From a virus (taxonomy: Duplodnaviria; Heunggongvirae; Uroviricota; Caudoviricetes), in IMG/VR virus record IMGVR_UViG_2648501730_000022, positions 1-27,879 of that record: a stretch of 27,879 bases of DNA. One strand, written 5' to 3'. The notes beneath the pieces are model-generated. The model was not told the DNA's origin. It saw only the letters and a list, made by a program, of their open reading frames with translations, and ran no database searches. A program made the position numbers and the translations under genes. This document shows positions 2,403 to 27,879 of this stretch, one piece after another; the stretch's first letter is position 1; each line of letters starts with the position of its first letter.

Positions 2403-2448
2403 GTTGAATACCTCCATGCAGTTATTTACTAGGCTTAGGGAGAAGGGA

Positions 2449-3662: not shown

Positions 3663-3664
3663 AG

Positions 3665-3710: not shown

Positions 3711-3712
3711 AA

Positions 3713-6445: not shown

Positions 6446-6453
6446 GAGCGGGT

Positions 6454-6762: not shown

Positions 6763-6807
6763 TATTGTTTCCTCATTAATAGTGATTACGCTGTATTTAT
6801 TTAGAAT

Positions 6808-7314
6808 TTAAGAGATTTTCAAAGTCTGCTTAGTGCCAGTCTTCTTAATGTTATTGAGTAAAGCAGCCGGAGGATTGCTTAACCAATAGTAATGAAAACC
6901 GCTTTGCATACTGTTATAAGGAACAGTGACAGCAGCACCACCCAAATTAACGGTTATATTCCCCGCTCTACCGTTCTGGAGATATACAGCCATAGTAGGA
7001 GTACCGCCATTGAATTGACCAACGATAACGCCAATCAGACGCCCTACGCCCACGTTTTCGGGGTTCTCCATAGATCCTTTACCGCGCATGTCAGTTACTG
7101 GATAGTTTGAAGCAGTTACACCCCAGTTATTACCCAATGAAGTAGACCACGCAGCAGTAGCTACAACCGTATCCATACCACGACCACACATCGCACTCAT
7201 GTTAGCTGGGCGACTAACCTTTAATGCGTTCATTGCTGCGCTCATCCATCGTTGACCAGTTACAGAAACAGCAGATGACCCGACCCAGCCAGGCTTATTA
7301 ACGACATTCGCCAT
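6808..7314 (-). CDS. Hypothetical tail-associated protein (168 aa)
   Basis: ORF between the tail tube gene and the chaperones; Gly/Asn-rich beta-type composition; no recognisable motif. Confidence 0.35.
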   Translation of the reverse strand: MANVVNKPGWVGSSAVSVTGQRWMSAAMNALKVSRPANMSAMCGRGMDTVVATAAWSTSLGNNWGVTASNYPVTDMRGKGSMENPENVGVGRLIGVIVGQFNGGTPTMAVYLQNGRAGNITVNLGGAAVTVPYNSMQSGFHYYWLSNPPAALLNNIKKTGTKQTLKIS

Positions 7315-7329
7315 TTTGATTACTCCAAT

Positions 7330-7356
7330 AAAAAAGCCCCACCATTAAGGCAGGGC
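7330..7356 (-). terminator. Rho-independent terminator after the tail tube gene
   Basis: Minus-strand RNA GCCCUGCC-UUAAU-GGUGGGGC followed by U6 (plus-strand A-run 7330-7335). Near-identical to the terminator after the capsid gene. Confidence 0.7.
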
Positions 7357-8012: not shown

Positions 8013-11000
8013 TTATTTAGTTGCTTTCAGTTCGGCAATTTCTTTCTGTAATGCTTCGATCTGGGCTTTATATTTGGCGTCCATTTCCTGCATAGCTTTG
8101 ATGATTAAAGCATTGACAGCAGAGTTAGAAATAGTCTTGATTGCTTCTGGATTTTCTGGATCTTCGGTGGATTGAATACCTACTGCTTCCGGCAATACTT
8201 CTTCCAGATCCTGAGCAATAATACCTACTTCGCGTTTAATCACACTACGGTCTTTAAGAGATTTAACTTTATCGTAGGTGTAGACTTTCAGTGAGTTTAC
8301 TTTCTCTAATGCGCCGTCCTGTAATTCTTCCTTGTTAATCTTCAAACGGGAGTCAGAGCGAATGTAAACATCGTTAAACGAACCGTTACGACCTGCGGTA
8401 AAGTCACCAGCAGCGTTAAAGTCAAAGTTAGTATCATGAACATGGAGACGAACAAGAGCGTTACCGATAGTACCGTCAGGAACGTGCACACCCATTGCTG
8501 CAATGTGATATTTACCCCAATGCGTCGCTTTCCATACGTTATGTGCCGAGTTGGTGGATTGAGGACACCCAACCATAAGACCAGCAGCACGGTCACGCCA
8601 GCTAGCCCAACTACCGCCAGCAACTTCACCACGAATCAGGCCATTACCGCCACCGGTTACAGTACCAGATTCCAACTGGATCATCTTATCCGCAAGTTTC
8701 CACGTCTGGGCTTGTTTCTGACCACGGAAGCGAATAACACCAGCATCATCGGAATACATCAAACCTAGTTCTAAGCCATTCGGATCTCTAAACCACAAAT
8801 GCTTATTACCAGTGCGCTTAAATTCAATATCAGCACCGTTAAGCGTGATATTACCGCCAGTGTGAATTGCTTGAGGCTTAACAGTACCGTTGATGGCAAA
8901 CTCAATTGCCGTAGTACCCGGACCGCCCGGACGTTGGGTATACCAATGCCAACCGCTTTCATCAGCACATTCAAATACTTGTTTACGAGCATCAGCGCCC
9001 CATGCACGAATATTGAAACTAGAAGTAGCTGTACCCTTACCCCAGCGAATCAGACCAGCAGATTCCAAATCACCGAAGAATTTAGTTTTAATCGCACCAG
9101 TTGCTAAAGTACGTTCAGTGGTGAAGTGAGCACCTTTACTATCTTCAAGCTGTATAACGTTATCACGAGCGTTATTGCTATCGCCCCAATGACTCAAACG
9201 GAAATAGTCGCGGGATTGTCCAGCACCAGCATCAAATGTTAAATATTGGCCTTTAATGTATGTGTTTCCAGCAAAACGAGCAGCACGACTTGCACGTTCT
9301 AAGACTAATGCACCTTCGTTACCATCACCACCCAAAGTAACATTACCGCTACCCAGATTGTAAATGAATGGACGATAGCCGTTCCAACCACCAAATTTAT
9401 CATTTTCGGCAGTAGACAGAAGATATACGTTTTGACCATCATTACGCCAGAATGCACCATAGTTACCGTAAATCATACGGAATGCATCACTGTTAGCAGC
9501 TACATATTGACCATTGGTGTATACAATTTTGGTAGCACCTGTGCTTAAAGATACTTGACCACTTGCTTCTAATTTAACAAAGTTTTTACCTTCGTCACTA
9601 TACCATTGAAAATCGTTAGTATCTGTAGAACCAAAACCAAACCAGCCTTGACGTTTATTAGCCCCGTCTCGCTGATCCATATATTCAAAATAGTTACTAC
9701 GACCAGTAGGACGCCACATACGAATCGCGTTATTGCCTTGCAGATGAAGTCTATCGACAAATAAACCATCACTACCAACAATTTTTAATACTTCTTTTTG
9801 GTCGGTGGAACCAGTAGCCAAACGATACACATCACCTTGAACAGTTTCATGCCATATTGTTTCCGCCGCACGACTGCGGAATTTACGCATATATTTTTTA
9901 TTGTTGTCTGGTACGTTATTAAGGCTCACAATATCATAGGTTGCTTGTGAGTTATTATCAAACATCAACGTTCCGGCTTTGTTTTCGGTGTTGAACATCG
10001 TAATAACACGAGCATCGGTAACACCAACAGAAGGTTTAACGAGAGTTAATTCAGGAACATCATGTACTGTCAGAGTAACGCCATCAGTTTTACCGTATTC
10101 GACAATAACGTTATCGGTGTAACGACCGTAGTTAACGTAGATATCGTAGTTATCACCGGAAGTATTAACCGCAAATACTTGATGAACGTTCAGAGCATTT
10201 CGACGATAAGCAGCAATACTAACGCCTTTCGGGTTATTGTTACCGGAACGGATGACAATTTCTACAAAGTCAACCTGATCATAAGAGTTAACGTTATAAC
10301 CATTACCACCGAAGATACGAAGCATTACCATTCGACCATTCTGTGGGATCGTAGCGGTTGCGATCTTGAAGTATCCACGAGTAGCATCACCAGAAGGAAC
10401 GGTCATTCTAACGTTCTTGATGAACATCTGATCAACTTCGGCTTTACTATACACACCCAATTCAGTCGGAGTCGGCTTATCACCTTCGTGATACATGCGG
10501 TAGCTGAATCGCTTATTACCATCTTTATCAAAGCCATAGGTTTTAACTTGAGATGAGCTAGACCCATAGTGGAACTCAAAACCGCGACCGTGTGCTTTAC
10601 CGCCAGAATGAGGAATGTTAAGGATTAAGTTACCCCAACCTTCGGCATTGTTTGGACGGAATGCACCAAAATAATCAAGGTTACGAGCACCAGCATCATC
10701 AAAATAGTTAGCTGTTTTGGTTAACAGATAGCCGTGATGGTAAGTGTTGGTATTCTTCTTGATGTAAGCAGCATCGGCACTACCTTCAATAGAATCAATT
10801 CGCTGGTTAGCTGCGGCAATTGCGGCATCAGTAGAAGATTTATTCTGGTCTACCTTGTTGTTAATTGCTGTATGGTTGCTATTAACTGTCCCCGTAAGAT
10901 TGGTGATCTTCGTGTCGGCATCGCGTTTATTATTTGCTACGGTCGTTTCTATGGCTGATTTATTTGCTGAGACAGTATTCGTTAAGTTAGTAACGTTGGT

Positions 11001-11513
11001 ATTAGTCTGATCAACTCGTGCATTAATATCTGTCTTGTTCTTGTTAATTGTTGCGTTGATAGTATCGCGGGTTGAAGTAATAGTCTGATTCAGTTCAGTC
11101 TTAGCAGCCGCCAGAGCGTTAGCCGCTTCGGTTTTATTGTTACCTACTGTGGTAGTCAAAGCATCAATTCGTTTGTTGGCTGCGGTGTCGCCAGCAGTGA
11201 TTGAAGCATTGAGAGCATCACGGGTAGAAGTGATAGTCTGATTCAGTTCAGCTTTAGCACTAGCCAGATTATTAGCGGCTTCTTGTTTGTTGGAAGCAAT
11301 AACACGGTCAGTGCTAGTTTTGTTATTGTCTACTTTCGTATTCAGTTCAGCGTGTTTTTCTGGAGAAACACTAATTTGGACTACGTTATTATTTTTGTCT
11401 TTGGTGTAAATCACATGATCCGCCAACTGTAAGGCGATTTCACCCTGTGATAATTGTTCCGGCGTTGGTTTTTTACCCGCCGTCTGTGTGCGTTTAAATT
11501 GGATTGATTGCAT
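8013..11513 (-). CDS. Long side tail fibre (1166 aa) with C-terminal intramolecular chaperone / peptidase S74-like domain
   Basis: ATG at 11511-11513 with GAGGTGA Shine-Dalgarno. Internal ~52-aa repeats near the N-terminus; a central motif (DESGWHWYTQR) recalled as P2 gpH / lambda Stf-like; C-terminal ~110 aa (SDSRLKINKEEL...VGIIAQDLEEVLPEAV...) matches the self-cleaving chaperone of T5 pb1 and K1F endosialidase. Confidence 0.75.
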   Translation of the reverse strand: MQSIQFKRTQTAGKKPTPEQLSQGEIALQLADHVIYTKDKNNNVVQISVSPEKHAELNTKVDNNKTSTDRVIASNKQEAANNLASAKAELNQTITSTRDALNASITAGDTAANKRIDALTTTVGNNKTEAANALAAAKTELNQTITSTRDTINATINKNKTDINARVDQTNTNVTNLTNTVSANKSAIETTVANNKRDADTKITNLTGTVNSNHTAINNKVDQNKSSTDAAIAAANQRIDSIEGSADAAYIKKNTNTYHHGYLLTKTANYFDDAGARNLDYFGAFRPNNAEGWGNLILNIPHSGGKAHGRGFEFHYGSSSSQVKTYGFDKDGNKRFSYRMYHEGDKPTPTELGVYSKAEVDQMFIKNVRMTVPSGDATRGYFKIATATIPQNGRMVMLRIFGGNGYNVNSYDQVDFVEIVIRSGNNNPKGVSIAAYRRNALNVHQVFAVNTSGDNYDIYVNYGRYTDNVIVEYGKTDGVTLTVHDVPELTLVKPSVGVTDARVITMFNTENKAGTLMFDNNSQATYDIVSLNNVPDNNKKYMRKFRSRAAETIWHETVQGDVYRLATGSTDQKEVLKIVGSDGLFVDRLHLQGNNAIRMWRPTGRSNYFEYMDQRDGANKRQGWFGFGSTDTNDFQWYSDEGKNFVKLEASGQVSLSTGATKIVYTNGQYVAANSDAFRMIYGNYGAFWRNDGQNVYLLSTAENDKFGGWNGYRPFIYNLGSGNVTLGGDGNEGALVLERASRAARFAGNTYIKGQYLTFDAGAGQSRDYFRLSHWGDSNNARDNVIQLEDSKGAHFTTERTLATGAIKTKFFGDLESAGLIRWGKGTATSSFNIRAWGADARKQVFECADESGWHWYTQRPGGPGTTAIEFAINGTVKPQAIHTGGNITLNGADIEFKRTGNKHLWFRDPNGLELGLMYSDDAGVIRFRGQKQAQTWKLADKMIQLESGTVTGGGNGLIRGEVAGGSWASWRDRAAGLMVGCPQSTNSAHNVWKATHWGKYHIAAMGVHVPDGTIGNALVRLHVHDTNFDFNAAGDFTAGRNGSFNDVYIRSDSRLKINKEELQDGALEKVNSLKVYTYDKVKSLKDRSVIKREVGIIAQDLEEVLPEAVGIQSTEDPENPEAIKTISNSAVNALIIKAMQEMDAKYKAQIEALQKEIAELKATK
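11051..11300 (-). repeat. Tandem in-frame ~156-nt repeats inside the fibre gene
   Basis: Two near-identical blocks (...AGTCTGATTCAGTTCAG...) encoding repeats of the form A.AK.ELNQTITSTRD.INA.I; further diverged copies upstream. Confidence 0.6.
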
Positions 11514-11594: not shown

Positions 11595-12428
11595 TTAGTA
11601 TTCGCCGAAATCGATCCGGTCAGTCTTAGCCACTGCGCCAATTTCGCTAGGTGTCGGTTTCTCATTGGTGGAATATACCTTGATCCATTCAGAACGACCG
11701 TTTTCCTGAATATTTCGGACACGTAAACGCGGTGCGCCAGAAGTATTACAGGTTAATTGCCATGCGCCATGCTCATTAGCTTGAAGGTGAATTAATGCTG
11801 TGTCGGTTGAATATGGATTACCGCTAGCAGTTCCCTTGTAAGTTACGAAACGGTTTCCGGCTAATGCCTCGCTGTCAATCGGACCCGTGAATGGATTTAC
11901 ACCAGCACCCAAACCAAAATCACCCTGACGTAAGATCCGGCCTTCGGTAGCAATACCCCTTGCCAAAATCCCGCCATCTGGTTCAAGTTTAAATTCCAGT
12001 GTTACAGCTTTGTTATCACTACCACGGGTTTTATGTGATGTGACGTAAGCATCGAATATACAAAAGTACCCTGTGTTAGCAGCACTATAGCCAGAGTTCA
12101 CAACATAGAACATACGGAAGCGTAAAGGTGTTTTATCCTCTACCGCTTTCATCAACATTGCTTGATGTTCATCGTCAAGAACACGGTTTAATGTGAGTGT
12201 TGTCGGTTCCAGTCTACGATAACCAGCAAGTTTCCCCGTAGCGTCCTGATCGTACTCTTCCAGAGTTTCTATCTCTGTGGATTCGGTTAGCGTAGGGAAT
12301 GCTGCGATGTTCTCCATAGAACTAAAGCTAGGATCGAAAAAGTCGACCTGATTGTCTATCTGGTTAGAGATCGACACTTCAACATGTGATCCAGTGAAAA
12401 TATCTAAGTTATCTTGTGTAATATTCAT
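11595..12428 (-). CDS. Tail-tube-like paralog with extra ~115-aa C-terminal domain (277 aa)
   Basis: N-terminal ~160 aa homologous to the 157-aa tail tube protein; unique C-terminal domain. Confidence 0.45.
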   Translation of the reverse strand: MNITQDNLDIFTGSHVEVSISNQIDNQVDFFDPSFSSMENIAAFPTLTESTEIETLEEYDQDATGKLAGYRRLEPTTLTLNRVLDDEHQAMLMKAVEDKTPLRFRMFYVVNSGYSAANTGYFCIFDAYVTSHKTRGSDNKAVTLEFKLEPDGGILARGIATEGRILRQGDFGLGAGVNPFTGPIDSEALAGNRFVTYKGTASGNPYSTDTALIHLQANEHGAWQLTCNTSGAPRLRVRNIQENGRSEWIKVYSTNEKPTPSEIGAVAKTDRIDFGEY

Positions 12429-12437
12429 TATTACCCC

Positions 12438-12860
12438 TTAAAAACGCGCTAGATAAGAAAATTTAAGGCTAAGTGTCCCAACGATACCCCCATCACTAGA
12501 ATCATCGTCATAATCGGTATTAGAAGCTACTGGAGTGATATCTGAAATAGAGAAGCCCAAATCTTTAAATCGTGGGTTATCCGGCTGAATCTGGATTATC
12601 TGGCAAATACCCTCATGGATTTTTGTTTCATGAATCTGAGAATATAATTGCATTTCGATAACGCATTCAGCTTGCATTGCATTACCACCACGAACACGCG
12701 TATAAGTTTCATTCATGCCAGTAATCCAACAAACCACGTCATCACTAAAGCCTTGCTGAGTTTGTTCTACGTTTAAAGCCAGACCTAAATCTTGTTCGAT
12801 AATATCTTGCAAGGCGCGTTTGATTTTCAGTCTCGGCATATTATTAACGGTAGCGAGCAT
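12438..12860 (-). CDS. Head-tail connector / tail completion protein (140 aa)
   Basis: Assigned by position between capsid and tail genes; overlaps the upstream gene by 17 nt. Confidence 0.3.
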   Translation of the reverse strand: MLATVNNMPRLKIKRALQDIIEQDLGLALNVEQTQQGFSDDVVCWITGMNETYTRVRGGNAMQAECVIEMQLYSQIHETKIHEGICQIIQIQPDNPRFKDLGFSISDITPVASNTDYDDDSSDGGIVGTLSLKFSYLARF

Positions 12861-13134
12861 GTGTACCCCCTGCTAAAGTGATAAAGCAATCACAAGTATT
12901 GTCACCATTGCGCTTAACGTATTGAACTTTGAAACGCTGGTTTTCTACTGTGACAATATCACCTTGCTTTAAGTCTCCCTCACGACAGAATAGAAATTCG
13001 GTTTCTGTCATTACACCTGATTCGTCGGTAGTAGTAATTTCATGGTAAGCACGAATTGATTTACCACCTTCCACCGAAAATACAGGAGCACTTTTAAACA
13101 TTCGATTTAATTGTGATTCTGATAATTTGAACAT
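12844..13134 (-). CDS. Head-tail adaptor / head completion protein (96 aa)
   Basis: Small ORF immediately after the capsid terminator; assigned by synteny. Confidence 0.3.
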   Translation of the reverse strand: MFKLSESQLNRMFKSAPVFSVEGGKSIRAYHEITTTDESGVMTETEFLFCREGDLKQGDIVTVENQRFKVQYVKRNGDNTCDCFITLAGGTHARYR

Positions 13135-17394: not shown

Positions 17395-17442
17395 AATTAC
17401 CCCTTATTTAATTGTTATTGGATTAACAATATTTAGGAGTAA

Positions 17443-17461
17443 GCCGCCCCGAAGGACGGCG
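17443..17461 (-). other. Hairpin with UUCG tetraloop downstream of the large terminase stop
   Basis: Minus-strand RNA CGCCGUCC-UUCG-GGGCGGC (one G-U pair); no U-run, so more likely a stabiliser or pause site than a terminator. Confidence 0.4.
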
Positions 17462-17466
17462 AGTTA

Positions 17467-19371
17467 TTAGAACGATGTTACCCAGCTACGGCCTCTATTT
17501 GGGCGTCTGGCGATGTTTTTACGTTGTGGTCGTGTGATTGGCTTATTTTCTTCGATTTGCTCGTCAGATTGCGATTTAGGAGCTTCTACGGGTTCTTCTG
17601 GTTCGCGGTTCAAACTATCTTTGATGGCTTCGAGTTTTTCCCATGACATTTTATTGAGTACATGGCGAGAAGCAGCATAGGAATAAGCCAGGCAGTCGAG
17701 AGCCTCGTTTCGTTGCTGACCAACTTTTACCCAACGTGTGGTATTACCCTGCCGTTTCAACTGTTCAGATAACAATTGTTCGCAGTAGTCATCAGGAACG
17801 TCACCAATCTGGAAGACCGTATGAGGATCGCTGTCTCTCAAGTTCCGGTTAATCATTTCACGGATCATCGTCTTAAGGTTGTTTACGCCCAGAATTTTAA
17901 GAGTAAAACCACCCGTTCTTGTGTCCTTGACCGGAAGGATTGGAGCATCAACATTGCTTGCCCCTTTAATGGCGCATAGGTTTTGCCACCTAGTGCAGAA
18001 GCGATAGATCACGTTTGTAGCTCGTCCGTTCGATGAGTCCACGAAAGCAGATAGCATCGGGATTCGTTGACCTGATCGGGTATAGAATTTAGCTTTCAGG
18101 AAGTTGTAAAGCTGGTCATATGCTGGCGATTCGTGGCGTTCGCAGTTCACATCATAGAATGATCGGTGATCAACTACGCATATCCCCTTACGAGAGATAC
18201 CCAGCAAGGTAGATTCCAGACGGTCTTTTTGCTGGTCAACTCCACCTACCAGAGCCAGAACATCATCAGGAATATTATCTAAGCTAATGTCAGTTTTCAG
18301 CGTTTCCAGTTCGTCGGCTGTGCGGTCTTCGTTAAGATCATCGAAGGTTTCACCGAGCACCACATTATAGAACGTTGCCAGTGACATATTCGCGTAGCTA
18401 TCAGCAAAGTCCACCACACACGCACGGATAGAACTAAACGGAGACATAAGGCGGTTAGCATGAAAACCGATTACTTCCGCATTTGGTTCGGTGGCGACCC
18501 ATTCTCCCTGAGCAACAGCACGGAGGCGATCTGGTTCTGACCAATCAGTTTCACATGACGGGCAACGGTAAACGGCTGTGTCTGGATTCGGCAGTGATTT
18601 ACCATTGATTACATGCCAATCAAAGAATACTCTACTCCATTCCATTACGTGTTTGTGTCCGCAATGCTGGCAAACGACGTGGTATTTTCTTTTATCCGAG
18701 AGTTCCCATTGTTGGTTTATCGCCCCATCCCGCGAAGTTGGAGTAGAAGCAATTACGATCCTTGCATCATCACCGAAAGTGGTTGCGCGTTGTTCCGCTA
18801 GCTGGATCGGGTTCCCTTCGTCTGACTCATCAGCCGCATCAACTTCATCCAGAATAATCAAAGGCAGTGTCTTACCGCGCAAGTGTGATGGACTGTTCAG
18901 CGACATGAAATACATGAATGATCCGTTACGAAGCTGAATAATCGATGAGTTGTTAACGGCATTGCGATCTGATTTGTCGGTGATCATCGCCTTTAATTCT
19001 GGGGTTGCCTCTAATACTGGCTTCACCTTACCCGCAATCCATGAGTTCAATTCTCGAACGTTCGCTTGCAAAACACCGATATTAGTAGGGTTACTGGCGA
19101 TCCTGTGAAAGATAATACCGTTTAGCACAAGAGTTTTACCCAACTGTGCCGAGCACTTTAGCACAATTTTTCGCCTATCTTCGGTGATCGCGTCCATCAT
19201 TCCACGTTGGAAGGGATGCAACTTAATTAGAGATCCGGCTTTAACACCATCGGTTGCAACTACATTAGCCTCTACCCATTCGCTAGGTTTCATCGTTTTA
19301 GGTGGGCGAATTGCCGCAGAGATATTTTTAAGAATCTTTTTTAATTTGGCCTTATTAGAAATCAGTTTCAT
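17467..19371 (-). CDS. Terminase large subunit, lambda GpA-like (634 aa)
   Basis: Walker A motif (KCSAQLGKT) near the N-terminus; Cys-rich segment (CQHCGHKH...CPSCETDW); size and position match lambda gpA (641 aa). Confidence 0.9.
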   Translation of the reverse strand: MKLISNKAKLKKILKNISAAIRPPKTMKPSEWVEANVVATDGVKAGSLIKLHPFQRGMMDAITEDRRKIVLKCSAQLGKTLVLNGIIFHRIASNPTNIGVLQANVRELNSWIAGKVKPVLEATPELKAMITDKSDRNAVNNSSIIQLRNGSFMYFMSLNSPSHLRGKTLPLIILDEVDAADESDEGNPIQLAEQRATTFGDDARIVIASTPTSRDGAINQQWELSDKRKYHVVCQHCGHKHVMEWSRVFFDWHVINGKSLPNPDTAVYRCPSCETDWSEPDRLRAVAQGEWVATEPNAEVIGFHANRLMSPFSSIRACVVDFADSYANMSLATFYNVVLGETFDDLNEDRTADELETLKTDISLDNIPDDVLALVGGVDQQKDRLESTLLGISRKGICVVDHRSFYDVNCERHESPAYDQLYNFLKAKFYTRSGQRIPMLSAFVDSSNGRATNVIYRFCTRWQNLCAIKGASNVDAPILPVKDTRTGGFTLKILGVNNLKTMIREMINRNLRDSDPHTVFQIGDVPDDYCEQLLSEQLKRQGNTTRWVKVGQQRNEALDCLAYSYAASRHVLNKMSWEKLEAIKDSLNREPEEPVEAPKSQSDEQIEENKPITRPQRKNIARRPNRGRSWVTSF

Positions 19372-19458
19372 GTAATTACCCTCATTACGAAATATGAAGG
19401 TATTTATTAAATTGTTGATATTTTGATAAATACGGGTATTAAGATTTAAGGGGGGTGT

Positions 19459-20064
19459 ATGCTAATTAATCAGCAAGAAAGAGATGAATTAGAATTAGCC
19501 TTGTCTTGTTGTACCGATCATGAATATCGTTTGCCAGTTAAGCACCATCACAAGAAGACTGATTACACTACATCCGGTTTTAGTCGCGAAGAAGCGAAGC
19601 AAATTTTAATCGAGTTGTATCGCGATCATGGGTATACAGATATCCATAACTTCTTTAAGAAGCACCGAACATCACAGACAGAGTTTCAGCGAGTCCGTGA
19701 ATGGTTTGATTTTGATATCAAGCGTTATTATCGAGTGGATGACGGTCCAATCTATCGGTTGCAGTGGAAGCCGATCAGGGAAGTGCTTAAACAGAAGAGA
19801 TTGAATCATGCCATTACACGCTATCGTAACGTGGCTTTCAAGAAAGGCTATGGTGATACAAGGGAATTGTTTGTAGAACTCGCTAACGTGCGATATAGCC
19901 ATTATTACAGGAATCCTAAAGAGTTCTTCGAAGTGCTGCGCAAGGTTGATATAAGTCGGGGTACATACTATTCACGGTTGAAGAAGTACGGGATTAAGGC
20001 AGAGTTTTTTATGTCAGTTGACGATGGAGAACTTTTTCCGATAAAATGTAAGTCCTCTAAATAA
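19459..20064 (+). CDS. Hypothetical basic protein with C-terminal HTH-like motif (201 aa)
   Basis: GGGGGG Shine-Dalgarno before the ATG; divergent from the terminase gene across an 87-bp gap; C-terminal SRGTYYSRLKKYGI resembles the 59-aa protein at 23335-23514. Confidence 0.5.
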   Translation: MLINQQERDELELALSCCTDHEYRLPVKHHHKKTDYTTSGFSREEAKQILIELYRDHGYTDIHNFFKKHRTSQTEFQRVREWFDFDIKRYYRVDDGPIYRLQWKPIREVLKQKRLNHAITRYRNVAFKKGYGDTRELFVELANVRYSHYYRNPKEFFEVLRKVDISRGTYYSRLKKYGIKAEFFMSVDDGELFPIKCKSSK

Positions 20065-20098
20065 AGGTGAACATTCACTTTAATTTGGAGAAATGACT

Positions 20099-20323
20099 AT
20101 GACTACTAAAGCTACTCGCGGTCGTCCTGCCCGTTTTAATCGTGAACAACTGGCAGAGATTGTAAAAGCGTACTATCAAGCACCGAAAGGTAAAGAGAAC
20201 AAAGAACGGGTATTAAATGAGCATGGCTTATCTATAGCCCAGCTATACAAATCCCTACATAAAGTTGATTTGAAATTCTTTGTTCAGGTTGACGGTGAAA
20301 TGGTAGAAGCAACAGGAAATTGA
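20099..20323 (+). CDS. Small DNA-binding protein with RGRP (AT-hook-like) N-terminus and HTH, 74 aa
   Basis: Start moved to the second ATG (20099), which has a GGAG Shine-Dalgarno ~8 nt upstream. Paralog of the 23335-23514 product (shared RP.(R/K)F.RE..(A/V)(E/D)I.K). Confidence 0.5.
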   Translation: MTTKATRGRPARFNREQLAEIVKAYYQAPKGKENKERVLNEHGLSIAQLYKSLHKVDLKFFVQVDGEMVEATGN

Positions 20324-20331
20324 TTCTCTAG

Positions 20332-20358
20332 GCCAATCCTTCGGGGTTGGCTTTTTTT
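20332..20358 (+). terminator. Rho-independent terminator with UUCG tetraloop
   Basis: GCCAAUCC-UUCG-GGGUUGGC followed by U7, 9 nt after the TGA stop. Confidence 0.75.
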
Positions 20359-20372
20359 ATACCTACAGATAC

Positions 20373-20397
20373 AAAAAAGCCCCTGAAATTCAGGGGC
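20373..20397 (-). terminator. Rho-independent terminator of the Rha operon
   Basis: Minus-strand stem GCCCCUGA / UCAGGGGC followed by U6 (plus-strand A-run 20373-20378), just below the Rha stop. Confidence 0.7.
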
Positions 20398-20405
20398 AAA
20401 AATTA

Positions 20406-21203
20406 TTACAGTCCGAAGTGTTCTAGCGATCCAACATTCTGACGAATCATGATAGTCGCTTTATTCTGAATCATGATCGTGTTATTCGGTTTAGGCAGTG
20501 TCAAAGCTGCTTTTTGTTCTTCTTCAAGAACACCCAATTCAACCAGCACCGGAAGCACATCAACAGTGAAAGAAAGTTGATAGTGAGCGTTCATGCTGCA
20601 AAACGGTATCGCGGAATCATTAGCAACATACCCACACGGCTTGTTATTTTCATCATAGACGCGCTCAATGTATCCGGCAGTACGTAAGGCCGTCAGTGCT
20701 TCTTTAACCTTCGTAGCGCCCTTTTTAGCACCTAACAGACGCGTCATTGAATGGCTATCTACGGATTTGCGATGATGTAGAGTAATCAGTTGCTTGTTCT
20801 CGCGAGTTTTCTTTAACGCCAGTTCGATCCAGTCGGTTTCTTCAAAGTCTGCATACGGGTTAACGGCTAAACGTTCCTGACGCAGTTTTTCATTTTCTTC
20901 TTTCAGTCGTTTCCATTCCTGAATAACAATCATTCGACGTTTAACATCGTAACCAGTAACAAGAGTCAGCGTCATTTCTTCGTCAAGGTGATATTCGGTT
21001 TGTTCGCGTCCATATTGGTCAAAATAGATACGCTGAGATTTCAGCGCATCTAATTCAAGTGCTTTAAACATCTTAACAATATCAGCTTTAACGTTTTTGT
21101 GTTCTTTTCCGGTAAATTCAGCGATCTGACGAGAAGACATGGTCAGTGGTTTGGTGTTATCAACAACCAGAGACACGGAAGCAGTTTTAACAGCAGTATT
21201 CAT
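20406..21203 (-). CDS. Phage regulatory protein Rha family (antirepressor-like), 265 aa
   Basis: N-terminal LTMSSRQIAEFTGKEHKNVKADI matches the Rha-domain signature; AAGGGGGA Shine-Dalgarno before the ATG. Confidence 0.75.
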   Translation of the reverse strand: MNTAVKTASVSLVVDNTKPLTMSSRQIAEFTGKEHKNVKADIVKMFKALELDALKSQRIYFDQYGREQTEYHLDEEMTLTLVTGYDVKRRMIVIQEWKRLKEENEKLRQERLAVNPYADFEETDWIELALKKTRENKQLITLHHRKSVDSHSMTRLLGAKKGATKVKEALTALRTAGYIERVYDENNKPCGYVANDSAIPFCSMNAHYQLSFTVDVLPVLVELGVLEEEQKAALTLPKPNNTIMIQNKATIMIRQNVGSLEHFGL

Positions 21204-21287
21204 AGTAAAAATCCCCCTTAACGGTTTAGTGATTTAATCCTCCCTGTTCCGGCATCACCACCGGAACAATTTTATTTATAAGAAGTT

Positions 21288-21440
21288 TTATCTCGTTTTG
21301 TATTCAGCCAGGCAGCGATCAATTTCTTCTTGAATCTGGCGCTGGCGTTCGTGGTAATCAACCATCGAGAAATTCAGGTTTGGTGTCCACGGCTTGCGGT
21401 TCGGGTTTTTACGTCCATCAATTTTCTTAGTAGTATTCAT
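21288..21440 (-). CDS. Small basic protein (50 aa); not in the ORF track
   Basis: ATG (rc of 21438-21440) with AGAGGA Shine-Dalgarno ~9 nt upstream; translation MNTTKKIDGRKNPNRKPWTPNLNFSMVDYHERQRQIQEEIDRCLAEYKTR; TAA at 21288-21290. Confidence 0.35.
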   Translation of the reverse strand: MNTTKKIDGRKNPNRKPWTPNLNFSMVDYHERQRQIQEEIDRCLAEYKTR

Positions 21441-21562
21441 AGTTCACATCCTCTTTACAAACCTAGGTCAAATCAGTTCAAAGTTGTCAAGTGCGATAAT
21501 CATAAAAAAGTCTGAAAATTTTGCCAATACCCCTTGACAAGATGCCAAAGGGTTGACCTAAC

Positions 21563-22030
21563 TTACAGCATATCTAAGCCTTCATCGTAACCGTAGAAGC
21601 CACCGTGAGAAGAAAAAGCGATTGGTGCGTAGTCATCATCATCTTCGTCTTCTTCATCGCGTTCTGGTGCTTTCTGAGCGGTTTCTTTGCCGTAGTTAAA
21701 CATTGCTTCATCCAGTTCTTGAAGAGTAAAGAAGCTACCCAGATCAACATCACCGGAACGGACTTCGAAAGGAAGGTATTCGCTAACGATGATCGCTGGA
21801 ATATTCTGGTACTTTAAGCGGCCTTCATCGGTGAAGACGTTAACAACAATGGTCGGCTTCTTATTACGGCAAAACGCATACCATACACTAGAGAAATGAG
21901 ATTCATCAGAGTTGAAAAGAATGTTGTAACCACGTTCAACAAAGATCTTCATTAACTTGTCATTGTGGAAGCTATCAGCATCAAAACCTAACAGGATGAA
22001 AGGAGTAGTGGTAGTCATTTTATGGTTCAT
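21563..22030 (-). CDS. Hypothetical protein with strongly acidic C-terminal tail (155 aa)
   Basis: AGAGGA Shine-Dalgarno before the ATG; C-terminal ERDEEDEDDDDYAPIAF...; first gene leftward from the long intergenic region. Confidence 0.5.
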   Translation of the reverse strand: MNHKMTTTTPFILLGFDADSFHNDKLMKIFVERGYNILFNSDESHFSSVWYAFCRNKKPTIVVNVFTDEGRLKYQNIPAIIVSEYLPFEVRSGDVDLGSFFTLQELDEAMFNYGKETAQKAPERDEEDEDDDDYAPIAFSSHGGFYGYDEGLDML

Positions 22031-22645
22031 AGTGGAAATCCTCTAAAAGAAAGCGAATCAATCTAATATTATTTATAAAGAGAAAATTCTTGTTATTATG
22101 AAAAGAGTGATCTGGTAGAGTCCAAAACTGGTCTGTACTTGAAAGATGATTGGATTCAGTCGGGCTAAAGCCCCCCTTCATAGATTTGATTAAATCATCA
22201 TCAAAACGAAGAAGTATCTTTAGAATATAAGAATCTTTCTTTTGAAGAAATAATAATCAGGAAGCAATTTAGCAACCGAAGGTTGCAATCCCGAAGGGAT
22301 ACCAATACCTTTCTAGAAATTGATTGTTACTCACTTCGTTCGTTTACTAGAATCAGTTAGTAACTAGTATTAAATCCCTTTCTAAGAAAATCCTTTTAAA
22401 AGTGAGTGAACGCCGTAGGCGTGAACGTGAGCGAAGCGAACTATCAATCCCTTTCGAATCCTGCTTGCAGGTCTTAGAAGGTGTTGGTGGGCGCTACGCG
22501 CACGGCTACGCCGTATTCTTTTTGCGAGATCTTTCTTGAACGTAGTGAGAGAAAGCGAGCAAAAAGGAGAACGTTAGTTCGAATTTTATATTCTATGGTC
22601 TGTGGGGTATAATACCTTTCAAGGTCATACACTTACGTGATTGAA

Positions 22646-22764
22646 GTGTAGGGTTAGTGTAGGTGTGTAGGTTTCATAGTGTAGGTTTGAGGGTGTTATA
22701 GTGTAGGTTTACTGGCTAGTGTAGTGTAGGCCAATCCCTTTAAAGGGTAGGTGTGTAGTGTAGG
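22646..22764. repeat. Iteron-like direct-repeat array, 7 copies of GTGTAGG (mostly GTGTAGGTTT)
   Basis: Copies begin at 22646, 22657, 22665, 22679, 22701, 22724 and 22758, same orientation, irregular spacing; the 12-bp palindrome CCCTTTAAAGGG (22735-22746) sits inside the array. Confidence 0.7.
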
Positions 22765-22961
22765 TTTTCAATCAAAAATTTTGACAAAAAATTCTTGTAT
22801 ATTATTCAACCAAAAAACCACCAAAAATAGATGTAAATTCATGATTTAAAAGAAATTTTCAAAAGATCTCCGTGCCATATAAGGTTTAAAAGGTTGATAA
22901 TCATTATTTGCCATTTTCAAACAAAAATTTTGATACACCTTTCTCGCTTAGATCATGAATG

Positions 22962-22990
22962 TTGACATGTGTCAAGAACTATTTTATACT
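22962..22990 (+). promoter_or_regulatory. Near-consensus sigma70-type promoter with operator-like palindrome over the -35
   Basis: TTGACA (22962-22967), 17-nt spacer, TATACT (22985-22990); TTGACAtgTGTCAA is a 14-bp palindrome. Confidence 0.5.
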
Positions 22991-23128
22991 TTTTATCCTT
23001 GGTAGGGGTTGAAATTTTCCAAACAATCCCCATATAGATGATAAGCATGATTTTTCGTGTATAAATACAATGCATGAAAAATGATTGTTCACTTCTGAAA
23101 ATCCCTTGACTAACTGTTAATTCATACA

Positions 23129-23155
23129 GCACTGGTTAGATATGCAGTGCTTTTT
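23129..23155 (+). terminator. Intrinsic terminator ~140 nt downstream of the promoter
   Basis: GCACUG-(10-nt loop)-CAGUGC followed by U5. Confidence 0.5.
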
Positions 23156-23334
23156 CGGTCGAATATTGTACGAATTGATTAATTATTAATCTTCTCTTTA
23201 GCAATTCGTGCTCCCACTGATCGGATATACAGTTGTTTTACAGAGTTTTTGAAAATCATTTTTATAAATAGAATTGTTCAGAGCGAAAAGCTCTTTTTTA
23301 AGGAATTATTAATCCACATGTGAGGAATCGATTT

Positions 23335-23514
23335 ATGGCTAGACCTGTTAAATTTACTCGTGAAATGATTGTTGATATTGCTAAACGGTTTTACAGCGAC
23401 ACTGAGCGAGGCGGGGAAAACTTCTTTAAGAAGGAAGGGATTGATAGAAGCGGATTCTATAAGCTAATGAAGAAATACGAAATTCAGGTAAAGATTAACG
23501 TTCAAGTTTGTTAA
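23335..23514 (+). CDS. Small HTH protein, paralog of the 20099-20323 product (59 aa)
   Basis: ATG at 23335 has a GAGGAA Shine-Dalgarno 7 nt upstream (the track start is a GTG with none); MARPVKFTREMIVDIAKRFY... aligns with the other paralog. Confidence 0.5.
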   Translation: MARPVKFTREMIVDIAKRFYSDTERGGENFFKKEGIDRSGFYKLMKKYEIQVKINVQVC

Positions 23515-23630
23515 TCCACTTTCACTGAGAATTATATGATGGCTTTAAAAATAAAAAGCCTCCCTTGTTGCAGCAAAGGAGACTTGAAATGAACAATTAA
23601 AACTAACACAGCATTCAGGAGTATTTATAA

Positions 23631-24656
23631 ATGAAAAATTCTAAGCGCATCACCTTCAACCTATTCATCAAATCCAACGGCAAACTGAACATTACCGTTA
23701 TGGAAGGTAAAGCAAGCAAACAAGACAAATCCTTTGAAGTAGTATCCGGTAAGACTCTGACCGAAATGCGTCAGAATGCTGGCATCAAAGACGGTGCTGA
23801 ATGGCAGATCACTAACCGTTTCGACAAACGTCACGTTAAACCTACACTGGTAGAAGGTGAATCCGTTTATTGCTTCGCTCGTGCTGTTAAAGCCGATGAA
23901 ACTTACTATCTCGCTGTTATTAAAACTGCTTCCGGCTTCCGTGCTGTAATGCATCACAAGAGCAAGCGTAACGAATACGGCGTAGAGACCCAGGAAGTTG
24001 CAAAACGCTTCCGTACTGTTGCTACTGAATCCACTGTAAAGGATGTTTCTGGTACTGTTAACACCGCTAAAGGCGGTTCCTTCTACAACCACGCATTACA
24101 GGTTACTTCCTCCTTCTTCTGCAAAAAAGAAGCACAGAAAGAAGTTGCTCCGGTAGTAGTTGAAGAAGTTAAAGAAGAAGTTGCAGTGGTTGAATCTTCC
24201 GAAGTTGAAGCACTGAAAGCACGCATTGCTGAACTGGAAGCTGAAAACGCATCTCTGAAAGCTGAACTGGCAGCGCAGGAAACCACTTTCGAAGTAGCAG
24301 CGGTTGAAGTTGAAGCAGTTGAAGAAAAATCCATTGATGAAGAACTGGAAGAACTCCTTAACTATCGCTGGGGTAACGGTGAAAAAGTAGGACAGGAAGA
24401 ACAGAAAGAAGCTGATCCGGTAGTAGTTCCGGTTGAAGAAAAATCCGCACCTGTTACTAACTTTGAATCCCTGCGCAATAACTTTATGGCTAAATTCAAA
24501 ACCACTTGGGAAGATACCGAAGAAGAACAAGAAGAGATTGAAGTAAACGAAGACGAGATCCGCGAAGCACAGATGGCACTGCATGACGCTATCTATGACA
24601 CCAACTACAGCGCCTACGCCTACGCCTACGCCTACGCCTACGCCTACGCAGCTTAA
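23631..24656 (+). CDS. Strongly codon-optimised acidic protein with (AY)6-AA C-terminus (341 aa), function unknown
   Basis: AGGAG Shine-Dalgarno 9 nt before the ATG; codon use is almost exclusively CTG/CGT/GGT/AAA/GAA/ACC/TTC, unlike neighbouring genes; central Glu/Val-rich coiled coil; ends ...SAYAYAYAYAYAYAA. Confidence 0.7.
   Translation: MKNSKRITFNLFIKSNGKLNITVMEGKASKQDKSFEVVSGKTLTEMRQNAGIKDGAEWQITNRFDKRHVKPTLVEGESVYCFARAVKADETYYLAVIKTASGFRAVMHHKSKRNEYGVETQEVAKRFRTVATESTVKDVSGTVNTAKGGSFYNHALQVTSSFFCKKEAQKEVAPVVVEEVKEEVAVVESSEVEALKARIAELEAENASLKAELAAQETTFEVAAVEVEAVEEKSIDEELEELLNYRWGNGEKVGQEEQKEADPVVVPVEEKSAPVTNFESLRNNFMAKFKTTWEDTEEEQEEIEVNEDEIREAQMALHDAIYDTNYSAYAYAYAYAYAYAA
24612..24647 (+). 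repeat. Hexanucleotide microsatellite (GCCTAC)x6 encoding the (AY)6 tail
   Basis: Six perfect tandem GCCTAC units in frame at the 3' end of the 341-aa gene. Confidence 0.9.
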
Positions 24657-24671
24657 TAGAGAGGTAATTCT

Positions 24672-24914
24672 ATGATTAATCAAAACAAAGAATTTCTTGG
24701 TAATCTGATGTTAGAAATTACCAAAATGAAAGAAAGAATGGTAGCGATGGAATCAGAGATTAAAACTCTTAAAGCTGATAATAAGGCGTTGAGAAAGTCC
24801 TTAAAACTGATTGATGAGACTAATGCGGTTATGATGGATCAGGTGTTTCCTGAGTGGCGAAATGAAACTAAACCTACACAACATAAGAAACCTACACTTC
24901 GAATTGTTGCATAA
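24672..24914 (+). CDS. Small coiled-coil protein (80 aa)
   Basis: AGAGG Shine-Dalgarno before the ATG; starts 16 nt after the upstream stop; helical K/E-rich sequence. Confidence 0.5.
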   Translation: MINQNKEFLGNLMLEITKMKERMVAMESEIKTLKADNKALRKSLKLIDETNAVMMDQVFPEWRNETKPTQHKKPTLRIVA

Positions 24915-24936
24915 AAAAGGGACTCCGAAGAGTCCC
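24913..24936 (-). terminator. Hairpin terminator with UUCG tetraloop (minus-strand U-run; may also stop the plus-strand operon)
   Basis: Minus-strand RNA GGGACUC-UUCG-GAGUCCC followed by U6. Confidence 0.6.
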
Positions 24937-25013
24937 TAGTAAGTTTAGGTTAGGTTTGCACAACAAAGATGAGGTTATAATGAACATAATGCTACATTAT
25001 TCTTTAAAGCCAG

Positions 25014-25037
25014 AAAAATAACCGCCCCGAAGGGCGG
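25014..25037 (-). terminator. Rho-independent terminator with UUCG tetraloop
   Basis: Minus-strand RNA CCGCCC-UUCG-GGGCGG followed by a U-rich run (UUAUUUUU). Confidence 0.6.
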
Positions 25038-25195
25038 GAGGATTAATACTCAATCTATACTTGTTATGTTTTTGTGTTGTATAGATCACTGACTATGAAA
25101 ACACTGTACTGGAGTGTGTTTTATGGCTTTTAATCGGGAATCCTCAAAGAAGATCCCCTGTTAATAACCATAAGGAGAAAAGGCAGATTACACTA

Positions 25196-25369
25196 TTATT
25201 TAGTATCCTTTTTACAGCAACTAAAAAGAATAAACAGGATTAAGCATACCCAGCCGTAAGGCGTACCGATTAGAAATTTGAAAAACACCACCAGCGATAT
25301 AAAAATCAATTTAATGCCAGCGACGATAGTCAAAAACAGCAGAGTAGCAAAGTAGACAAAAAGATCCAT
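25196..25369 (-). CDS. Small hydrophobic membrane peptide, two predicted TM segments (57 aa); not in the ORF track
   Basis: ATG with AGAGGA Shine-Dalgarno ~8 nt upstream; translation MDLFVYFATLLFLTIVAGIKLIFISLVVFFKFLIGTPYGWVCLILFILFSCCKKDTK. Confidence 0.4.
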   Translation of the reverse strand: MDLFVYFATLLFLTIVAGIKLIFISLVVFFKFLIGTPYGWVCLILFILFSCCKKDTK

Positions 25370-25422
25370 AGATAATCCTCTTTGAAAACGACCATCATCT
25401 ATAGTTCAATTCATCGATTTAA

Positions 25423-25524
25423 TTAATGATACTTGAAAGCGTTACACACAGTAGAAATGCCAATGTGAGCAAGTGAATATACGATAGTTAATCCTACAGC
25501 CAGATAAATCAAAAATTCAACCAT
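25423..25524 (-). CDS. Small hydrophobic peptide, one predicted TM segment (33 aa); not in the ORF track
   Basis: ATG with GAGGA Shine-Dalgarno upstream; translation MVEFLIYLAVGLTIVYSLAHIGISTVCNAFKYH. Confidence 0.3.
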   Translation of the reverse strand: MVEFLIYLAVGLTIVYSLAHIGISTVCNAFKYH

Positions 25525-25554
25525 AGGTAAATCCTCAAATAAGAAAAAGGTTAG

Positions 25555-25573
25555 CGGGGGATGTTCTCCCCCG
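25555..25573 (-). other. Hairpin CGGGGGA-TGTTC-TCCCCCG between the 184-aa gene and the peptide genes
   Basis: Same 7-bp stem as the hairpin at 7987-8005; followed on the minus strand by a U-rich tract. Confidence 0.5.
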
Positions 25574-25624
25574 TAGACGTTGACCAGCTCAACATCCTTC
25601 ACGTATATGTTTAGTATCTAATTT

Positions 25625-26179
25625 TTAAGACACATCAAATTCATCGTCTTCTTCTGGTTCTTGTTCCGGTTCATCCATTAATGCTAATTCTTCTTCCTCG
25701 TCTTCTCCCAAATCTGCATTTTCGAACAAGTCCCCTACTTCATTTAAACGACGTTCGATGATCTCCCTTAGCTTATTCTTCAATGTTTTCTGATCAGTGG
25801 CGGATTCTAAAATTTCTAGGGCATCGATCGTACAAATCTGCAAAATAGTCTGTTTCACTTTCCCGCAGTATTCCGCTAGTTCCTGTTCTACATAACCGAC
25901 AGGAATCAGGAGATTCATTTTTTCCTGGTTCTCTCGTTCGGCTGCATCTGCCAAAGCACGTTCACGGCGTAATTTCTCTACGTCGATTTGTTCTTTGATA
26001 GAAGTTTGTTTAAGCGGGTTGATAATATTTTTCAAGACCCATTCTGTTCCTTCTTTGGCTGGCACGCGGCGGGTATTGGTGTTAAATGGCAATCCCCTTT
26101 CTAACCATCGCTTACCGCCACCATTCAATGTATAGCCATATAAACGGGAAATTTCTGTAAGGGTTAATTCTTCTTTCAT
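25625..26179 (-). CDS. DNA-binding protein, possibly terminase small subunit (lambda Nu1-like), 184 aa
   Basis: N-terminal HTH-like LTLTEISRLYGY, then GGGKRWLERGLP and EKLRRERA, recalled as resembling Nu1 (181 aa); acidic C-terminal tail. Confidence 0.4.
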   Translation of the reverse strand: MKEELTLTEISRLYGYTLNGGGKRWLERGLPFNTNTRRVPAKEGTEWVLKNIINPLKQTSIKEQIDVEKLRRERALADAAERENQEKMNLLIPVGYVEQELAEYCGKVKQTILQICTIDALEILESATDQKTLKNKLREIIERRLNEVGDLFENADLGEDEEEELALMDEPEQEPEEDDEFDVS

Positions 26180-26537
26180 TGGTTATCCTCCATTAAATTT
26201 GCGTAATTTTATTTATTGGTTTTACGCACAATCTAAGCGCCTAAATCGCATTCTAACGAAGGGAAAGATCCAGTAATGGTAAGGGTTAGGAAGTGGGTTA
26301 ATAGTCGCGTAGCGACCGCGCCATAAGTGAAGTGATCACGTTTTAGAATCTCACACGCACATCAAATACCAGGGTGCCGAAAACTCCCTTTATTTCATCC
26401 ATGGAACAGTACCTTTTTAATTTGTCAAGTATTAATTTCTTAATTTAATTACTAAATCTCACCCCAATAATTGAAAAAATATCAAAAATCAATAAAGTAA
26501 GCATCTAAAAGTCAGTCCATACCAAAAGAGGTATAAA

Positions 26538-27305
26538 ATGAAAAACATTATCGCTGCTATCATGCTTTCTGCTACTGCTTTCGGTGCTGATGCTGCGTCC
26601 TTTGATTGCACTAAGGCTACTACCAAATCAGAGAAGTTTATTTGTGCTAATGAGTCAATCTCCGCACTGGATTCTAAACTTCATGAAGTATATGTTAAGG
26701 CTGTTAAGATTAATCCGTCTCTTAAACAAGAGCAACGTAACTGGAATAAAACTGTTCGTGACACAATGATCAATATCGGGCAGATTCAGCCACTGGAGGC
26801 TGTATACAACGCTCAAATCCAAAACTTGATGAATGTATTATCTAAAGAAGAAACCGCGTCAGGGAGCGTTTCAGAGACTTCTGCGAAGGTTGAAGAAGAA
26901 CAACCGAAACAGGAAGAAAAAGTGGTGGAAGAACCGAAGGTTGAAGATAAACCAAAAGGATTTACCGGAGACATGACATTGCAATGCGATGTTCACTATA
27001 GCTGGGAAATCCAAGACGGGGTAGAAACAAAAGCAGTTAAAGACATTGGCTATCCTCGTTATAACTCTGGTGAACTTAAACTTAAAGTAAAAGACGGGGA
27101 AATTATTGAATTTGTGTATCGTGATAATTATGACGCGCATAAAGCAAAGACAAAAACAGTGACGCATCAGAATGGCGCAATGCAATATGAAGGCCAAGTG
27201 GATAACAAAAAATATTATGTGTGGCGTGATAATCAAGATATGATTCGCTTAGAAGTACATAAAAAATATTCAAGAACATACATTGACCAGTACGGGTGCA
27301 AATAA
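26538..27305 (+). CDS. Secreted protein with LprI / DUF1311-like N-terminal domain (255 aa)
   Basis: Signal peptide MKNIIAAIMLSATAFGADA; then FDCTKATTKSEKFICANESISALDSKLHEVY...QRNWNK, the DUF1311 pattern; AGAGG Shine-Dalgarno before the ATG. Confidence 0.6.
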   Translation: MKNIIAAIMLSATAFGADAASFDCTKATTKSEKFICANESISALDSKLHEVYVKAVKINPSLKQEQRNWNKTVRDTMINIGQIQPLEAVYNAQIQNLMNVLSKEETASGSVSETSAKVEEEQPKQEEKVVEEPKVEDKPKGFTGDMTLQCDVHYSWEIQDGVETKAVKDIGYPRYNSGELKLKVKDGEIIEFVYRDNYDAHKAKTKTVTHQNGAMQYEGQVDNKKYYVWRDNQDMIRLEVHKKYSRTYIDQYGCK

Positions 27306-27528
27306 TTATGAAATTCAATAACATGAAGATCACAAAAGATTGGTGGGATGCGATGAAAGCTAACCACCAGAACGATATTAATTAAGTAACATTTTAGATA
27401 TACAGCACCCAGCTAACAGATCACCTTTTATGGATTTCATTATAACCCTTTTGATCTGGAAACTATGTTAATTAGTTGATTTCTAAGCCTTGTCCTTGTG
27501 ATGGGGCTTTTTATTGCAAAATTTTTAG

Positions 27529-27879
27529 TTATTTGGGGTTGACTACATTCGGGTTGCCAATTCGCCTGGCTAACTCTTGCTGAGTGATTTCTGACTGTAA
27601 AAAAGCATTTAACAGCAATACCTTAGAGGCGACGCTCAAAGGTACTTCAATAAAATGATCGTGACTATTTAATGGCGAAGGTAACGGGATAAGCTCGTTA
27701 TCTTCAAAATAAAAATCAAATGCGGTCAGTAAAGCATCTTTTGCCGCTTCCATCGCTTCAGCGACAGTTTCGCCCTGGGTCAACGCTTCAGGGATATCCA
27801 CAAAAGAAACCATATAACCGCCTTCCGGCGCGGGTGTAAGAGTGACGGGATAACGCATAATTTCGACTGTCTCTCGCAT
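27529..27879 (-). CDS. hicB: HicB antitoxin N-terminal domain with C-terminal HTH truncated; probable host gene interrupted at the prophage junction
   Basis: MRETVEIMRYPVTLTPAPEGGYMVSFVDIPEALTQGETVAEAMEAAKDAL... is a HicB N-terminal domain and matches my recollection of E. coli HicB. The ORF stops at ...QQELARRIG-NPNVVNPK*, inside the first helix of the expected Xre-type HTH. The ATG is at the window edge. Confidence 0.65.
   Translation of the reverse strand: MRETVEIMRYPVTLTPAPEGGYMVSFVDIPEALTQGETVAEAMEAAKDALLTAFDFYFEDNELIPLPSPLNSHDHFIEVPLSVASKVLLLNAFLQSEITQQELARRIGNPNVVNPK

Follow-up and report, generated by a model that had tools for sequence, protein, structure and literature searches.

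In phages with a lambda-type (Nu1/gpA) terminase, the cos site lies directly upstream of Nu1, the gene of the small terminase subunit (TerS). In nearly every tailed phage, the genes for the small and the large subunit (TerL) are adjacent (PMC3488191). Exceptions are Yersinia phage PY100, whose ORF2 and ORF18 are described in PMC3488191 as widely separated and on opposite strands, and Pseudomonas phage PaP3 (orf1 and orf3; PMC3488191); in Rhodococcus phages of Cluster CR, a gene block lies between terS and the structural genes (PMC13313380). The literature search found no report of the prophage lineage described here. The separation of its terminase genes, which the original prediction called unusual, is indeed uncommon, yet separated terminase genes are documented in the phages just named.

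The window (the whole stretch of DNA analysed, 27,879 nt) ends on its right side inside the host gene hicB, and its main features are as follows.

25625-26179, minus strand: terS, encoding a probable divergent Nu1-family small terminase (TerS) of 184 aa
17467-19371, minus strand: terL, encoding a lambda gpA-type large terminase (GpA_ATPase 1.4e-59 and GpA_nuclease 4.8e-46 in Pfam; phrog_15 1.8e-141)
19372-25195, both strands: intervening non-structural block, the same cassette between terS and terL in 25 loci; on the terL side ORFs of 201 and 76 aa (plus), a Rha-family regulator (20406-21203, minus) and a 155-aa ORF (minus), on the terS side a 1.3-kb ORF-poor stretch and ORFs of 64, 341 and 80 aa (plus)
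26538-27305, plus strand: LprI-family accessory gene (PF07007, phrog_14799), between terS and the prophage end
27529-27879, minus strand: N-terminal part of host hicB, its C-terminus cut off by the prophage; junction at about 27535-27560

According to the ORF list and the sequence, the helix-turn-helix ORF of 184 aa lies exactly where it had been predicted, and its ATG is preceded by a GGAGGA ribosome-binding site. The ORF list also confirms that terL starts at 19371 with no small-subunit gene beside it, its nearest upstream neighbor being a divergent ORF (19459-20064, plus strand) across a gap of 87 bp; a gene for a lambda-family portal comes after terL. From the terS stop to the terL start the distance, anticipated as about 6 kb, is 6,253 bp, with at least seven ORFs in between, on both strands. 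As the prophage junction lies inside hicB at the right end of the window, terS is about 1.4 kb from the prophage end.

The 184-aa protein is very probably the TerS of the prophage, a divergent Nu1-family member and the partner of the gpA-type TerL. The comparison with small-terminase HMMs that the original prediction had proposed was positive in PHROGs, where phrog_57 (“terminase small subunit”) matches residues 24-172 of the protein with E 6e-11; Nu1 of lambda (from NC_001416) matches the same profile at 1.3e-76, and homologues do so at 1.2e-15, 2e-17 and 1.3e-22, covering nearly the whole profile (up to positions 9-192 of 199). No match of the window protein was found in NCBIfam or in Pfam, including Phage_Nu1 (PF07471); a 77%-identical homologue from ETEC1739, named “terminase small subunit” by PGAP, reaches Phage_Nu1 with E 0.006 and 16.6 bits, which is below the cut-off of 30. 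A word-indexed search returned 73 close relatives, most of them unnamed, from E. coli, Salmonella and Proteus; their alignment contains 43 invariant columns, conservation extending along the whole protein. By exhaustive profile search 232 representative clusters were collected, nearly all of proteins of 150–200 aa; 19 of 40 aligned remote representatives match Phage_Nu1 of Pfam (best 9e-18). When compared to lambda Nu1 with hhalign, a profile of 17 sequences gave 93.9% (E 1.6e-7) and one of 40 sequences gave 99.0% (E 7e-18, 123 columns, Nu1 residues 2-142); since true Nu1-like proteins are included in the latter profile, it matches Nu1 by transitive homology. Other small-terminase families (Terminase_2, Terminase_4/P27, Terminase_5 and GP3_package) gave no Pfam match at E <= 0.1, and the only terminase PHROGs matched were phrog_57 and, in homologues, phrog_141. 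Among 50,697 phage records, tblastn with the window protein found nothing and no cultured relative came to light, the TerS proteins of the relatives matching only that of a Paracoccus phage (E 1e-3). A scan of genome contigs yielded no relative; the wide alignment was too divergent for a locus search.

It is improbable that the 184-aa protein is instead a winged-helix regulator of the MerR/excisionase type in a phage that lacks or hides a conventional TerS. Such a protein might be a transcription factor, or a directionality factor for the serine integrase, which becomes a near neighbor across attP after excision; the N-terminal fold is that of a MerR/Xis-like winged helix, the gene is probably transcribed separately and lies close to the prophage end, and a conserved inverted repeat overlaps its leader. 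The family matches that point in this direction are weak, confined to the helix-turn-helix and seen in homologues (phrog_66, excisionase/regulator, 2.8e-5; phrog_2474, MerR-like, 3e-3; HTH_17 and MerR_1 of Pfam, the latter in 3 of 40), while the window protein itself matches no MerR/excisionase family in Pfam, PHROGs or NCBIfam, and the match to the Nu1 family continues far past the helix-turn-helix. MerR regulators typically carry a C-terminal effector or dimerization domain, and Xis proteins are typically small. Further, orthologues occupy the canonical TerS slot, overlapping terL, and no other TerS candidate was found. The suggestion that the protein is a regulator and the true small subunit lies elsewhere is thus disfavored, there being no match to a transcription-factor family beyond the helix-turn-helix.

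An AF2 model of the TerS (pLDDT 72.6) predicts four consecutive regions.

Residues 1-40 (approximately): winged helix-turn-helix, modeled as strand-helix-helix-strand at residues 4-40 with moderate confidence (pLDDT 64-71)
Residues 41-89: long helix of 49 residues
Residues 94-153: helical bundle
Residues 159-184: acidic, disordered tail

The architecture predicted by the model is Nu1-like. Invariant residues include W25, G29, P31 and W47, as well as F181 in the tail. The best PDB match in Foldseek was 6hn7_B, the N-terminal domain of phage 80 TerS (TM 0.62 over 71 columns), with an E of 1.1, which is not significant; the 6HN7 entry shows this domain in complex with the PICI protein Rpp. Profile matches in the PDB to 6hn7, 1j9i (the DNA-binding domain of Nu1) and 7lw0 were weak and all at the N-terminus. 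UDP-sugar epimerases, the top PDB matches by sequence (residues 88-159), were judged to reflect spurious helical similarity.

Gene order is the most decisive line of evidence. In 25 IMG/VR viral-contig loci of about 35 kb (L006-L030), terS and terL are intact, lie on the same strand and are 5.5–9 kb apart, with a cassette in between that encodes the 64-aa helix-turn-helix, 155-aa, Rha, 76-aa helix-turn-helix and 201-aa proteins. In a second lineage (L034-L040; TerS 42–47% and TerL 52–57% identical) the genes are also on the same strand and 5–6.6 kb apart, with other cargo; one of its loci (L036) holds in this gap a gene similar to NUMOD3 homing endonucleases (12275-12889) and one for a GntR-type helix-turn-helix protein, and upstream of terS one for a CAP12/Pycsar-type TIR-domain protein (6445-7341; 4.8e-38), so the slot around the gap seems to collect defense and selfish genes. 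In a third, sister lineage (L041-L047; TerS 36–38% and TerL 38–40% identical), terS is directly upstream of terL or overlaps it. The two genes co-occur in every locus long enough to include both; they are not adjacent in the window or in 32 related loci, where 5–9 kb lie between them, and are adjacent in the sister lineage. Adjacency is a typical trait of the Nu1 family, not a function-defining one. Since the sister-lineage orthologues adjoin terL, the ancestral arrangement had terS right in front of terL, and the split is a derived state; the place of these orthologues in the TerS slot makes the family the cognate small subunit for this family of TerL, and the terL product of the window the presumable partner of its TerS. 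No other TerS candidate was found among the remaining genes of the ETEC1739 prophage or the structural genes of the window, which was the search of the rest of the prophage that had been advised. Together with the Nu1-family profiles and the orthologues beside terL, this bears out the original prediction's first option, a small subunit uncoupled from the late operon.

The gene is carried by 63 of 5,426 complete E. coli genomes, mostly under the label “hypothetical protein”. In strain ETEC1739, ycdX houses a prophage that is related and complete (about 35 kb) and carries a large serine recombinase on the far side, and E. coli C325 is 100% identical to positions 17400-27879 of the window. The C325 prophage is truncated by IS3; repressor, Cro and replication genes are not recognizable anywhere in the prophage of about 35 kb, and cultured relatives are missing from the phage records searched. 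These observations would suit a defective or rearranged prophage in which the 184-aa gene survives as a stranded leftover without a role for terL. Such decay is very unlikely, given that the same order recurs with intact ORFs in the 25 viral-contig loci, that attachment sites include hicB (the window), ycdX (ETEC1739) and others, with intact copies at at least two of them, that homologues are present in Salmonella and Proteus, that the second lineage has the same split with other cargo, and that the protein is conserved over its whole length.

All non-structural genes of the element lie between terS and terL (19372-25195 in the window, 24137-30258 in L004), with the serine-recombinase integrase at the opposite end. 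Within this block, 22031-23319 is a stretch of about 1.3 kb without an ORF of at least 60 aa; its GC content of 0.36 is the minimum of the window and it holds many promoter-like matches. Rfam matched nowhere in the window; the stretch may serve as an origin or a regulatory hub, or may encode an unannotated RNA. On either side of the Rha region, 20093-20323 and 23320-23514 (both plus strand) encode small paralogous helix-turn-helix proteins that are 35–38% identical, share an N-terminal “RP..F” motif and match no family. The 341-aa protein is an acidic coiled-coil protein with a C-terminal (Ala-Tyr) repeat, YAYAYAYAYAYAA, which derives from a short tandem repeat (24620-24656); its gene is in two pieces in ETEC1739.

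Beyond terS, the slot of the lysozyme-inhibitor-like LprI-family gene varies between loci: L031 lacks the gene, and L002, L012, L024 and L027 have something else in its place. In the window the nucleotide sequence of this gene shares 94–96% identity with one from RB49-like phages of the T-even group (Krischvirus), and the rest of 17400-27879 has no near match among the 50,697 phage records; by its sequence, it looks like a recent transfer between a virulent myovirus and a temperate element. Genes for a distal subunit of long tail fibers similar to phage T4 gp37 (8013-11513, minus strand; phrog_1699, 7e-137) and a gp38-like adhesin (6808-7314, minus strand; phrog_1121) are embedded in a tail module of the siphovirus type, which again points to exchange with T-even phages.

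One and the same TerS (97–100% identical) occurs together with TerL alleles that are only 55–58% identical to each other. In L006-L031 there are two such terL alleles, each combinable with the same terS, portal and flanking genes, and the switch between them falls at about codon 17. The first 16 residues of TerL, MKLISNKAKLKKIL[KR]N, are the same in both save for one K/R change. This conserved N-terminus was considered as a docking site for TerS and set aside: the block is 100% identical at the nucleotide level from the 87-bp intergenic region to codon 16, and identity running through the intergenic region marks a recombination junction, which makes the conservation ambiguous and leaves a docking site unproven. 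The closest TerL among cultured-phage records (43.7% identical) is that of phage DCP80 (PQ671644.1). It is encoded in the first part (1-5735) of a 141-kb record classed as a T-even-like Gaprivervirus, where a lambda-type terminase and portal are unexpected; the record may be a chimeric assembly.

The terS gene likely lies in a transcription unit of its own, whose 3′ side would be set by the following features.

25555-25573, minus strand: GC hairpin CGGGGGA-GAACA-TCCCCCG, a 7-bp stem past the terS stop; a T-run starts 6 nt after the stem
25196-25524, minus strand: two small hydrophobic ORFs 3′ of terS, of 33 aa (ATG at 25524) and 57 aa (25196-25369), both preceded by a GAGGA ribosome-binding site of their own
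25022-25037, minus strand: canonical intrinsic terminator, 6 GC pairs followed by a T-run, the first canonical one on this strand

The hairpin folds better than shuffled sequence (z -3.1) and was not called by the terminator scan; it may act as a weak or partial terminator. Since the first canonical terminator comes only after both small ORFs, which match no family, the unit probably consists of terS and these two. The terminators originally ascribed to terS are therefore borne out in part: the canonical one lies past two further ORFs, and the hairpin next to the gene may be a weak one. On the 5′ side, a scan of 26180-26537 gave no sigma-70-like promoter for the minus strand, and a conserved TTGACA upstream of terS is not accompanied by a usable -10 hexamer at 16–18 bp.

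Four elements stand out in the non-coding DNA upstream of terS.

26180-26430, minus strand: conserved non-coding block of about 250 bp, kept whichever gene lies beyond (22 distinct upstream regions aligned)
26378-26414, minus strand: two-part motif AGGTACT-N23-GAGTTTTCG, then a GC-rich and then a T-rich stretch
26304-26316, unstranded: perfect palindrome GTCGC-GTA-GCGAC, inside a GC-rich island
26200-26228, unstranded: inverted repeat TGCGTAA-N15-TTACGCA, read from the sequence, just upstream of the terS ribosome-binding site

The conserved block may combine a putative cos region (a cosN-like core and a terS-proximal binding region) with the promoter and leader of terS; in L031 hardly anything else lies between terS and the att junction. 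In its general form, AG[GT]T[AT]CT-N(18-34)-G..GTTT(T)CG, the two-part motif recurs in all three lineages: most loci with upstream sequence have it, the exceptions being L027, L029, L042, L043 and L046, and a locus that has it contains a single copy, 5′ of terS and on the terS strand. There were 3 off-target matches in the 1.44 Mb scanned and no recurrence near terL, a count which, as the pattern was derived from the same sequences, shows specificity and not independent significance. By conservation, 26378-26414 is the best candidate for a cos core; it could equally be a promoter or activator site, and an activator-dependent promoter is the main alternative to cos for this motif. That cos lies within 26330-26430 has a slightly better than even chance. 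The lineage with adjacent genes shares the motif, and cos of lambda is 5′ of Nu1, which suggests that cos stayed with terS at the split.

The original prediction saw a possible cos/pac or operator site in the palindrome-rich DNA upstream of terS. The region remains plausible, and the palindrome it named is present; the best-conserved element, however, is the two-part motif, the palindrome belonging to one sub-lineage. A 20-mer containing it was found in 20 of 30 loci and is absent from L002 and L027-L029, whose TerS differs in the recognition helix, so the palindrome is possibly a lineage-specific element of TerS specificity (cosB-like); genetic linkage alone could cause the co-variation. The inverted repeat, a possible operator to judge from its sequence, occurs in alleles of the window, L002 and, less exactly, L027 types, while alleles of the L017 type have a degenerate left arm; a repeat finder run on the intergenic region returned short AT-rich matches only. 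Contig ends were considered as a guide to cos and proved uninformative, because one Logan contig begins 1 nt ahead of the motif and four others read through. A contig of 35.5 kb ends at att, not at cos.

A genuine TerS with cos elsewhere, near terL or outside the window, the upstream block being a regulated promoter only, is a possible reading but the less probable one. Metagenome contigs do read straight through the block, and the TTGACA and the inverted repeat would suit a promoter; the former, though, has no usable partner hexamer, the motif keeps its place upstream of terS in adjacent and split lineages alike without being repeated near terL, and the established position of cos in Nu1/gpA phages is directly 5′ of Nu1.

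With cos placed upstream of terS, packaging might proceed much as in lambda. By analogy to Nu1, the N-terminal winged helix-turn-helix of TerS would bind sites in the region of about 250 bp that precedes terS, the long helix and the helical bundle would oligomerize, and the conserved acidic C-terminus would recruit TerL, which would nick a nearby cos core, for which 26378-26414 and the adjoining GC-rich bases are the candidate. DNA would then be packaged in the order terS, early block, terL, head, tail, lysis, integrase, attP and cos. The ancestral terS-terL pair is parted in this clade by a regulatory/accessory block of 5–9 kb, and the split would leave a cos-terS cassette as a small transcription unit of its own beside attP. 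More speculative, and on balance unlikely, is the further idea that cos and terS form a self-contained, separately regulated cassette for packaging specificity that can be exchanged without the TerL motor; it is suggested by the pairing of one TerS with divergent TerL alleles and by the joint variation of the N-terminal domain of TerS and its upstream DNA. If it were true, separate control of terS (through the inverted repeat over its leader) would be a distinct checkpoint for the commitment to packaging, and the whole early/control region would lie inside a split packaging module.

Taken together, the locus combines an ordinary function with an uncommon, derived gene order and an annotation gap. 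The understanding of the terminase mechanism is unchanged. Its value for annotation is plain, as terS is a “hypothetical protein” in nearly all of its 63 carriers, Pfam and NCBIfam miss the window protein, and tools that look for terS only beside terL would miss such genes. It also shows how inserted regulatory/accessory genes have split a lambda-type terminase operon, an event that is dated by the sister lineage with adjacent genes; the putative cos staying with terS bears on how packaging specificity (terS and cos) can evolve and recombine apart from the TerL motor, as well as on the prediction of virion ends for uncultured prophages.

Among described systems, gpNu1/gpA of lambda is the closest: its small subunit belongs to the same PHROG family (57), as reflected in the profile-profile match, and has the winged helix-turn-helix, helical oligomerization region and C-terminal tail that are predicted here; its TerL partner is likewise of the gpA type, a lambda-family portal comes next, and the DNA immediately 5′ of the small-subunit gene is a long conserved non-coding block. 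Unlike Nu1, the window TerS is only about 20% identical to it and under the Pfam threshold, its C-terminus is a (predicted) acidic disordered tail, and its gene is 6.3 kb upstream of terL without overlap, with non-structural genes in both directions in between and a terminator of its own. The TerS of phage 80 (6HN7) provides the best structural match of the predicted N-terminal domain, with a weak match in sequence and an E that is not significant; in contrast to that system, no Rpp-like gene was seen here. PY100, PaP3 and the Cluster CR phages, likened to the window by gene order, have other genes between those for the small and the large terminase as well. What sets the window apart from them is that the split occurs within a Nu1/gpA-type system and can be dated against a sister lineage which has kept the canonical order.
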